Source of the DNA: Escherichia coli
GTDB taxonomy: Bacteria > Pseudomonadota > Gammaproteobacteria > Enterobacterales > Enterobacteriaceae
Assembly (NCBI RefSeq): GCF_003334255.1
Contig: NZ_QOWU01000025.1
Direction: 5' to 3' (one strand)
DNA length: 64,000 nucleotides
Positions 28,501-31,500 of the stretch are shown here, piece by piece. Made by a program: the position numbers. How positions within the stretch are numbered: the first letter of the stretch is position 1; each line of letters opens with the position of its first letter.

Positions 28501-31500
28501 AATGACCACCGTTTTCCAGCAACACATTGTCTGCCACGTGATTGTGGATGGAGAATGCACCTTCACTATTCGTACCGCTCACCGTCGTACCGTTAGTGTT
28601 AGTTTTTAAAATTGCACCATCGTGCTGGGTAACATTTGTTGCCGTACCACCACTAACATCAAGCACGCCACCAGAATAAACTTCAATAACATCCGAGGTG
28701 CTGGTGTTATCAACAATTTGCGTGCCACCAGAATAGATATGCGTATTTTTTGCCGTTGACTTACTATTCAGAGACTGAGTTCCGCCTTCAATCGTCGTGT
28801 CCAGCGCACGGCTCTCATATACTCTTTGCTCACCGCCATTTTTAATGGTTGTTGTTTCTACTGTGCTCTGTTCAACATACTGTCGACCACCATTTATGGT
28901 TGTGTTCGTTGCCAGACTTCCTTGTACTACGTCCTGAGAGCCAGACTTATTTATCGTTGTACCATCAGCATGCCCTTGAACTTTTACTATCTGGCTACCA
29001 CCATCAATGAGTATTCCATTCGCACTCCCTCCCTCTACGCGTGAAGCACCGCCCTTAATTGTCGTTCCATTGCTGATACCCCCTTTATAAACGTCCTGAT
29101 TGCCACTCTCGATTGTCGTACCTGTGGAAATACCCCCGTCATGAATTGACTGTCTGCCACCGTTAATGGTTGTATTATTAGCCTGCCCCACAAAATTGTT
29201 ATGACTTCCTATATCTTGATATCCACCAGATTCAATAAGACTTCCATTAGATACCCCGCCATGAACATTCTGCTGGCCATGGTTGATAATATGAGTGTTA
29301 TTTGTTGTACCTCGTTCATCCACTTTTTGGTTGCCATCTACAGTCTCATCGTTTACCACACCAATAACATTAGTAGTGAAGGCAGCCATCCCGGGCGGGG
29401 CATATATCAAGGCAGATATCAATAAGGAAAGTACTGAGCGGCGACAATAATAGGGACTGGTCCTGTTCATAAATTTCATCCTCTGAAAAGTGAATACTGA
29501 GTAGCGTTTAAGCGACCTTAGCTTTGCTGCAACATCAGCCCACAGGCACCAGACCAGGGGATTCATCCTGAAGAGACAGCGCAAGTGTATTGTGTTCACC
29601 GCTCATCAAAGACATCATGATGAAATGATGATATTCCGCATAAGAATGAGGCATTTTTTAAACGCAGTGCGCTGAAGTGTGGTTGGATAAAAAAGTCAAT
29701 CCATTCAGGAAATACGGGCGTATTCTTTTCTTTCGACAATGAGGCCGTTGGCAAAATAAAATGATTTACATAATCGTTTCTGATGAATATCTTCTGCTCA
29801 CATAAAAATCACACAATAACTTTGAGATCGCAGATTGTTTTACTTTTACAGCATTCGTCCCCCCATTGTTGGGCAAATATAGATTGGGCCAGAGCACGAA
29901 AGTTAATACCACGTTCGCACAGCTCCTCCAACAGCACGACAAGATGCCACATACTGCGCCCCAGTCGGTTCAGTTTACAGACTAGCAGTGCGTTCCCTGC
30001 CGATGATGTCCTGACCAGTTTTTTCAGTCCGGACCTCCTGCCACGGTTTTACGTTGAAGTGGTAACCCTGAGCACGCAGTTCTTCAGTCAGGCGTGGTGC
30101 ACCGTAACGCTGTTATTGCTGGGTAAGATCAAAAAACTTTCAGGCAGCTAAGGAAAGTTGAACCAGACATTAGATGAAATATTTCAACCAATTACAGCAC
30201 CAATTCAGTCACTGCCAGCCCACCAAATAAATCAAGGGGTTACATGAAAACGTAGCCCCTTTTTCTTTGGTAGTGACACTAAAATGGATGTAGTGTGAAG
30301 AATAATCCCGTTTACTCAATCAATAATACATATTGTTTCAATCTACGTTATTATCTCTTTGTGAAAATTGCCATTTATTAATCATTGAAAACTGCTTTTA
30401 GAACTTGATACAACGGGACTAGTCACAACAGGACTATTCTCAACGGGATCATCCTCAGAGGAACTATCATCAAAGTCATCATCCATAAATAAAATATCAT
30501 CGAATGGTGCCACGCCCGTGATGAGTTTTATTTTATTATTACGATCAGTCAATACTCCACTTAAACCGTTTTCGCTCACAGGTTTTAATGATTTTTCATT
30601 ACTCTTGTTGTAAGCAGGCGCATTAAAAATACACGGAGTATCAACATCAAACAATGACGTTCCCCAGTTCACATATTGAATATCATAGTTACTGAAGTTC
30701 TGTCCAGAAAAGAAGCACCCCTTAAAATCCAATCCACGTAAATTATATAAACCACCCTCTTCTTTTTGGAGAGTAATGTTAATTTTGGCTATCTCCCGGA
30801 CATCATCGCCATTTTTGTATTTGAATACCGTTTCAAGATGTTCTCCAGACAGCTTGACTTCAGGAAATAATTTGAAATCAAAGCCTATATTATTATGTGT
30901 CAACGTAGATGAACAAAAAATGGAAAAAGCTTGCAGTGCTGAATTATAGCTATCGATTTTATCTTGAGGCTGAGCTCTTGGTAAAAACTTATAGCAACAC
31001 TCATAAAAATTAAACAGAAGCTCTGAAGACCTTGTATTTTTATCAAATAATACCCCCTTGAACTCATTCACAAACGCATCTTTTTTTTCTTGAATATCTA
31101 TGGGGTGTTCCTTTGACTCTGACAAAGATGAAATCTCATCTATTTTGTTTTCATATGAATTACGTGATTCCATACAGACATTTGGCGGCGTTTCTAAAAT
31201 AACACTACGCGTACTACTTGGCTTAAGTAAACCAACATGAAAATCACTTTTTCTTATATTATCGAAAAGGTTCTATTCATTTCTTTTAGCGCATTCAAAA
31301 AACTGATCGGCATTATTTTTATTCGATAATTTTTTAGTTTCAGAAAACACATTTTCATTGTTTTCCAGCTTTAGTTTAATGAGAAGATTTTCCCAGACCT
31401 GCTTGCTTAAACATATTACGTCAGGCTCACCAGAACTAACTAACTCGTGATTATTATTAAAGTGTACGTTGAATACCTTTAAGTTATTTTCACCAACTTC

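Follow-up and report, generated by a model that had tools for sequence, protein, structure and literature searches.

Within a 64,000-nucleotide (nt) stretch of an Escherichia coli genome (contig NZ_QOWU01000025.1, assembly GCF_003334255.1), here called the window, the DNA separating the autotransporter adhesin gene ypjA (EhaD) from ypjB contains a piece of a DNA invertase gene joined to a piece of the insertion sequence (IS) IS3. This locus is the already annotated pseudogene pinH; what is added here are its two joints, on the 5' side with an IS3 stump that has an internal deletion and on the 3' side with the edge of a duplicated autotransporter cassette. A sequence-only reading had proposed a chimeric invertase/IS3 remnant at 29600-30120, immediately upstream of the autotransporter gene, and had suggested a fossil phase-variation switch. 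The juxtaposition of both remnants upstream of ypjA was borne out by the matches and the map. The real extent of the scar is 29878-30131, and 29600-29860 of the proposed interval is ypjA leader and not invertase. On the minus strand, the IS3 left terminal repeat, ~78 nt of orfB and pin codons 41 to 94 adjoin end to end, and the ypjA leader comes after them (Table 1). Judging from these sequences, the feature is very probably a non-functional composite deletion scar, which would have no recombinase activity and would be only upstream spacer DNA for ypjA.

Anatomy of the pinH remnant

The invertase piece encodes KLNRLGRSMWHLVVLLEELCERGINFRALAQSI on the minus strand, ending at 29878, and begins 20 codons before the start quoted in the sequence-only reading, whose assignment to the Pin/Hin family is confirmed. 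Amino acids (aa) 39-94 of PinE from strain K-12 align with 30045-29878 with 70% identity (tblastn, E=2e-22), and the Pfam Resolvase model (PF00239) is matched at positions 48-103 of 145 (E=3.3e-9), so that the domain is incomplete and the homology shown. The Gin structures 3uj3 and 4m6f were found with E=5.7e-12 and gamma-delta resolvase only with E=3e-3 to 8e-3, which places the fragment, with Gin, on the invertase and not on the resolvase branch of serine recombinases. Among phage-collection records, annotated DNA invertases match best, with 68-72% at the protein level, e.g. those of the Salmonella phages Fels-2 and SEN8. At the DNA level, the closest intact relatives (83-85% over 147 nt) are pinE-type prophage genes adjoining back-to-back tail-fibre genes, as PinE of the cryptic prophage e14 and the invertases of P2- and Mu-like prophages.

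An intact Pin, 184 aa long, carries its catalytic serine close to the N-terminus and binds DNA with a C-terminal domain; only 53-56 codons are left in the window. The catalytic serine (near residue 10, in the YxRVST motif) is absent, the alignment with PinE starting at residue 39-41 and the DNA upstream being IS3. The C-terminal helix-turn-helix and E-helix are also absent: similarity does not go past residue 94, and no match to Pin residues 95-184 exists in the window. No second Pin match exists in these 64 kb (tblastn), nor is there an intact open Pin frame, as a stop lies at the 5' junction.

In the MG1655 genome (NC_000913.3), pinH (b2648) is annotated between ypjA and ypjB at 2783065-2783304, approximately 29808-30047 of the window, and nothing essential differs between the two copies. 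However, the MG1655 annotation does not mention the adjoining IS3 stump and sets the 3' limit ~70 nt past the real Pin similarity. The Prokaryotic Genome Annotation Pipeline (PGAP) reports a "recombinase family protein, missing N- and C-terminus" at exactly 29878-30045. In the literature pinH is listed, and we found no discussion of it. A genomic SELEX (systematic evolution of ligands by exponential enrichment) peak for RpoS, listed between ypjA and ileY, falls between ypjC and ileY once the older coordinates are allowed for, and not in pinH.

The IS3 remnant extends from 30131 to 30037 on the minus strand, with an 18-nt left terminal repeat followed by OrfB codons 58-83. Over the 15 nt of the repeat (TGATCTTACCCAGCAATA) that match the beginning of IS3A the identity is complete, and the 3 bases preceding them, TGA, agree with the TGATC start at the other (right) IS3 end. 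This is the sole match in the window at up to 2 mismatches, where 0 are expected (none in 100 shuffles). The sequence-only reading had noticed a peptide of about 20 aa resembling an IS3 transposase, and this holds: the 21 letters quoted are encoded by 30109-30047 on the minus strand. Residues 58-83 of InsF from K-12 match 30124-30047 with 21 of 26 identical (81%; tblastn, E=5e-11 in a 1-kb search space), InsF searched against the whole window gives a match of aa 57-83 (E=6e-8), and 30040-30126 shows 88.6% DNA identity with IS3A nt 528-615 over 88 nt (blastn). The NCBIfam model of IS3 family transposases scores 15.8 bits (E=0.006), far below its cut-off of 160, which a piece of only 26 aa would not be expected to reach. 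One nucleotide, an A, has been lost from this piece after ...NVK.

The left repeat is joined directly to IS3A nt ~541-618, and the ~525 nt between them are missing. Imperfect 13-nt repeats, TTACCCAGCAATA and TTACCCGGTCAAA, border the missing segment, and a microhomology deletion between them is a plausible cause of the internal loss. Compared with a complete element of the IS3 group (IS3 family), ~95 of 1,258 nt are left, without orfA, the DDE catalytic region and the right end. Neither an IS3 right end, a match to InsE (orfA) nor any InsF residues other than 58-83 were found in the window, and tblastn returned no second IS3 match beyond the remnant.

The two pieces are not joined in frame. 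The IS3 piece had been described as running in frame into the invertase, yet tblastn places them in frames -1 and -2, respectively, with a TAA stop of the Pin frame at 30051-30049, exactly at the joint. The change from IS3 to pin codon 41 occurs at 30037/30036 (±3 nt), where AGG TCC GGA CTG encodes RSGL against RPGL in Pin. At the other end, the invertase was thought to degenerate gradually, but its similarity stops sharply, at 29878 for the protein and 29890 for the DNA, and 29855-29500 shows 89% identity with the leader that a paralogous autotransporter cassette has at the minE locus. A short junction zone of uncertain ancestry separates the two (Table 1); a gapped continuation of Pin to 29861 (CAATGGGG) is seen by eye only and we do not claim it. 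The IS3 left end is a true original insertion boundary, downstream of ypjB, and the other three joints are deletion joints. What the scar retains is homology, and it has none of the functional features of a serine invertase, of an IS3 element or of an invertible switch.

The ypjA leader is roughly 390 bp long, and in strain MFDS1019527 a copy also stands before an intact AIDA-type paralogue of 1,560 aa beside minE; in most strains the minE-locus leader precedes a gutted remnant (ymgJ/ycgI region) in which the leader and the C-terminal barrel remain. The upstream neighbours of the minE-locus copies, intact or gutted, are ymgI, ymgG and ymgD, with no invertase. The minE-locus version occurs in E. 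albertii too, again downstream of YmgG and YmgD, on a contig where nothing resembles Pin or IS3. Since the leader is shared with these invertase-free loci, the ypjA promoter most simply belongs to the autotransporter cassette, with the Pin stump joined to the outer edge of the latter.

Distribution and variation of the scar

The 951-bp region 29450-30400 is contiguous (a single co-linear match over 80% or more of the query) in 3,003 of 5,426 complete E. coli genomes. The ypjA 5' end with its leader is present in 2,990, so there is no sizeable class of genomes with ypjA and without the scar. The other genomes, ~45% of the complete ones, lack the ypjA...ileY...ygaQ interval altogether. The junctions are identical in MG1655, in the divergent isolate SY019 and in four further lineages, six in total. 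We infer that the joints were formed before the ypjA-bearing E. coli lineages diverged.

No intact invertase gene, such as the sequence-only reading had proposed to compare in other strains, was seen at the ypjA locus in a search of 5.8 billion proteins. Queried with the 54-aa Pin piece for an intact close relative, this collection returned only 19 clusters, all of them short E. coli open reading frames (ORFs) of 48-95 aa with the same scar boundaries; the intact Pin relatives were found by DNA and tblastn searches. The 19 deposited ORFs start at different places, some of them inside the IS3 piece, and sometimes switch frame.

In the alignment of the six lineages, the proportion of variable columns is 17.0% in the Pin piece and 17.9% in the IS3 piece, compared with 20.7% in the spacer, 22.6% in the ypjA 5' coding region, 9.4% in the distal leader and 3.6% in the leader core. 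Variable sites of the Pin frame are distributed as 9/10/9 over codon positions 1/2/3, and one of the lineages, strain MRSN346647, has a 1-nt deletion (frameshift). This pattern of variation is that of an old scar in neutral drift.

Origin of the scar and alternative readings

The order of the pieces is consistent with the following history. An IS3 copy would have inserted downstream of ypjCB, near or into an element with a pin-type invertase; this element was most likely what remained of a prophage or island between ssrA and ileY. Internal IS3 sequence may then have been deleted between the two imperfect 13-nt repeats. A second illegitimate deletion would have joined IS3 nt ~618 to pin codon 41, with loss of what was left of IS3, of the 5' end and crossover site of pin and of all the DNA between them, and a third break after pin codon ~94 would have joined the fragment to the edge of the ypjA cassette. 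The ssrA attachment site holds the CP4-57 prophage in K-12, and the ileY 3' end is an island attachment site as well, where a CP4-like island of strain GF161 replaces ypjC-ypjB-pinH-ypjA (it carries a type I restriction-modification system, an Ag43/Cah adhesin, antirestriction genes, RadC and YeeU/CbtA). With both RNA genes at the flanks serving for attachment, the pin gene is likely to come from a degraded prophage or island.

Some points weigh against this account. The order and mechanism of the deletions are deduced from the anatomy of the junctions, and no genome with an intermediate state was found; the 3,003 and 2,990 genomes are totals and not a record-by-record comparison; ypjCB has no match in 50,697 phage records, which leaves the prophage origin of the whole interval only putative; and the lack of function is itself deduced from sequence. 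As a prophage or plasmid marker ypjCB was rejected, its matches in the plasmid collection being mislabelled chromosomes and one partial match.

The idea of a fossil Hin-like switch supposes that an ancestral invertase lay in an invertible segment with the ypjA promoter and was frozen by later deletions. The remnant does lie ~410 bp upstream of the ypjA start and is co-directional with this gene, and its place on the invertase branch would suit such a role. In the ON state of the hin-fljB system the relative order and orientation are the same. This likeness to Hin/hix of Salmonella is limited to an invertase upstream of a co-directional surface-protein gene, while recombination sites, an invertible segment and an intact recombinase are missing, and the promoter region is cassette DNA shared with the invertase-free minE paralogue and E. 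albertii. Intact Pin elements adjoin a segment of ~1.8 kb: in e14 and a related prophage at dusA, from which the reference pix sites were derived, inverted repeats (...TTCTCCCAAACC AA C/GGTTT...) 1.8 kb apart bracket back-to-back genes for the tail fibre and its assembly. The remnant, by contrast, is without sites, tail-fibre genes or open frame. In real Pin elements the pin-proximal crossover site is 60-80 bp upstream of the pin start, and therefore it has been deleted here along with the 5' part of the gene. No full pix site was matched in the window at up to 3 mismatches, and a degenerate core pattern gave two matches ~10 kb from the scar against 2.65 expected. Half-sites were absent from 29000-31000, except for one unpaired 2-mismatch match inside the GC-rich hairpin (Table 1). 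The search for hix/gix-like repeats that the sequence-only reading had suggested gave no hix-, gix- or pix-like site and no credible inverted repeat, near the locus or within 29300-30500, where the inverted repeats are short (10-24 nt, 71-91% complementary), unremarkable and at chance level. No inversion breakpoint is present inside the region in the 3,003 co-linear genome matches, the six aligned lineages are co-linear too, and no intact copy was seen at the locus; within the limits of these searches, related genomes have no inverted repeats or invertible segment, an outcome that the sequence-only reading had itself named as a refutation. The nearest intact relatives flip prophage tail-fibre segments, and those from the phage collection are annotated DNA invertases. 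Moreover, pin and ypjA came to lie side by side through a truncation or deletion junction, and theirs is not an original arrangement that can be read functionally. The phase-variation idea for ypjA is thus unsupported, and a frozen switch seems hardly credible. Equally improbable, though strictly compatible with the present sequence now that the deletions have taken the two crossover sites and the greater part of the gene, is a mobile element, of which the scar would be the only remainder, with a Pin-type invertase in control of a ypjA-type adhesin cassette. No other serine-invertase adhesin switch is known in E. coli.

Retention of the remnant for some function is a different proposal: a Pin-derived peptide could hinder intact Pin invertases (candidates are a 47-aa ORF at 29809-29952 or the 72-aa ORFs called in other strains), or the DNA could be regulatory or a spacer for ypjA. 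It would agree with the presence of the scar, with the same boundaries, in essentially every ypjA-bearing genome, with the fact that the kept segment includes part of the serine-recombinase dimer-interface region (aligned to Gin residues 42-94), and with the ORFs of 48-95 aa produced by gene callers. However, the variable sites are spread evenly over codon positions, frameshifts and alternative frames occur in several lineages, start codons differ, and the sequence has diverged as much as the non-coding spacer. Linkage to ypjA and a lack of selection for removal account for the persistence, and we consider a retained function very unlikely. The least probable of all the readings is that the plus-strand 122-aa ORF (Table 1), which the sequence-only reading had dismissed as a shadow of the remnants, is a real new gene with incidental Pin/IS3 similarity. 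This ORF exists and is open in 5 of the 6 divergent lineages, and its start is overlapped or closely preceded by two weak sigma-70-like sites of the plus strand (29733-29793), but promoter-like sites are fewer than the mean of shuffles. Three unrelated DNA segments (leader, Pin and IS3) make up the ORF, of which the Pin and IS3 matches are highly significant and account for the sequence; it is antisense to Pin in the frame with common third codon positions, a classic shadow frame; its variation has no codon-position bias in the Pin part; it is broken in MRSN346647; and it is not annotated in MG1655. The earlier dismissal stands, and the composite deletion scar remains our preferred reading of the locus.

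Genomic neighbourhood and the ypjA leader

From 24707 to 36000 the window is 99.9% identical to K-12 MG1655 from 2,777,964 onward, and from 16000 to 26000 there is 100% identity with several commensal and clinical strains. The map was built from annotation transferred from matching genomes, plus ARAGORN for RNA genes (Table 1).

Table 1. Features at the pinH locus and around it, in window coordinates
Feature	Position	Strand	Basis
ssrA (transfer-messenger RNA)	24367-24729	+	transferred annotation/ARAGORN
ypjA (EhaD), AIDA-type autotransporter adhesin; scar upstream of gene	24890-29469	-	ORF and annotation in matching genomes
ypjA cassette leader/promoter region, not invertase; core 29470-29689 unusually conserved	29470-29855	-	minE-locus paralogy
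39-aa "hypothetical protein" (PGAP WP_001120794.1)	29535-29654	-	transferred annotation
Antisense 122-aa ORF, shadow of Pin/IS3 remnants, not a gene	29783-30151	+	ORF scan
Junction zone, 22 nt, ancestry uncertain, between Pin remnant and ypjA leader	29856-29877	-	past last Pin-aligned codon, before minE-locus paralogy
pinH, remnant of Hin/Gin/Cin/Pin-type serine DNA invertase, codons 41-94 of ~185	29878-30036	-	tblastn, Pfam, structure match, annotation
Partial "recombinase family protein"	29878-30045	-	transferred annotation
Internal IS3 orfB piece, IS3A nt ~541-618, InsF aa 58-83 then 1-nt deletion	30037-30113	-	blastn, tblastn
IS3 left terminal inverted repeat TGATCTTACCCAGCAATA	30114-30131	-	15/15 identity to first 15 nt of IS3A (MG1655 annotation)
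GC-rich hairpin between ypjB stop and IS3 end; likely ypjB terminator	30234-30261		terminator-like site
ypjB, distal half of ypjCB; upstream neighbour of scar	30382-31173	-	ORF and annotation
ypjC	31273-31755	-	transferred annotation
ileY, tRNA-Ile(CAU)	32506-32581	-	transferred annotation/ARAGORN
ygaQ fragments, glaH	coordinates not exact		transferred annotation

The window strain differs from MG1655 on the other side of ypjA, where the CP4-57 prophage is missing: the ypjA stop is 160 bp after ssrA, and in K-12 a 22-kb prophage lies there. Read on the minus strand, a spacer of ~250 nt with a GC-rich hairpin separates the ypjB stop from the IS3 left repeat; this hairpin is a likely ypjB terminator on weak evidence, since the count of terminator-like sites does not exceed that of shuffles. 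The ypjB and ypjC genes are halves of ypjCB with an internal stop between them, an intact 484-aa version being present in isolate SY019, and the alpha-amylase-like gene ygaQ is likewise split into several ORFs (33141-35393). The ileY gene is called tRNA-Met by ARAGORN because of its CAU anticodon. The interval with ypjCB and ygaQ is a pseudogene graveyard. Further insertions were seen at the locus, with an IS3-family element inside ypjA in STEC1587 and IS1 copies in the scar/leader region of strains HZ13 and EH08-18-36: the ypjA locus repeatedly attracts insertion sequences.

The ypjA gene and its leader (24880-29855) behave as a cassette of ~5 kb with sharp ends, present both at ssrA-ileY and at minE-ymgI on the chromosome. 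An intact copy at minE is found in a few strains, e.g. MFDS1019527. The upstream region of ycgV in K-12, where a "ymgJ" paralogue was expected, has no similarity, and the paralogue is at minE-ymgI instead. An exact 24-nt leader word searched among species representatives, a test limited by the need for an exact word, was found only in the E. albertii minE-locus paralogue and in two contaminant contigs. The latter, filed under Terrisporobacter mayombei and "uncultured Clostridiales", contain pinH/ypjA-leader DNA of E. coli with 95-99% identity, and the assemblies concerned are almost certainly contaminated by E. coli. A scan for promoter consensus sequences gave no promoter-like site on the minus strand of 29300-30500.

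The leader core (29470-29689, minus strand) is far less variable in the six lineages than its flanks, which have 17-23% variable columns, and it contains a 10-bp palindrome, CATCATGATG. Leader blocks of 13-35 nt are invariant in E. albertii. The 39-aa ORF at 29535-29654 has lost its ATG in E. albertii and therefore does not explain this conservation. Looking for an RNA explanation of the leader, we found no Rfam match, an unremarkable fold z-score of 0.28 and too little variation for covariation. The conservation suggests that the core is probably an undescribed cis-regulatory region of the autotransporter family.

The pinH locus is a textbook case of how an IS insertion and illegitimate deletions leave short stumps that drift neutrally and persist across the species. 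Such gene stumps yield misleading ORFs on both strands, and at least 19 different short "recombinase family" proteins have been deposited from this scar. Its practical value is negative and in itself it matters little: no phase-variation model for YpjA/EhaD should rest on the pinH fragment. The conserved ypjA leader is the more interesting object nearby.

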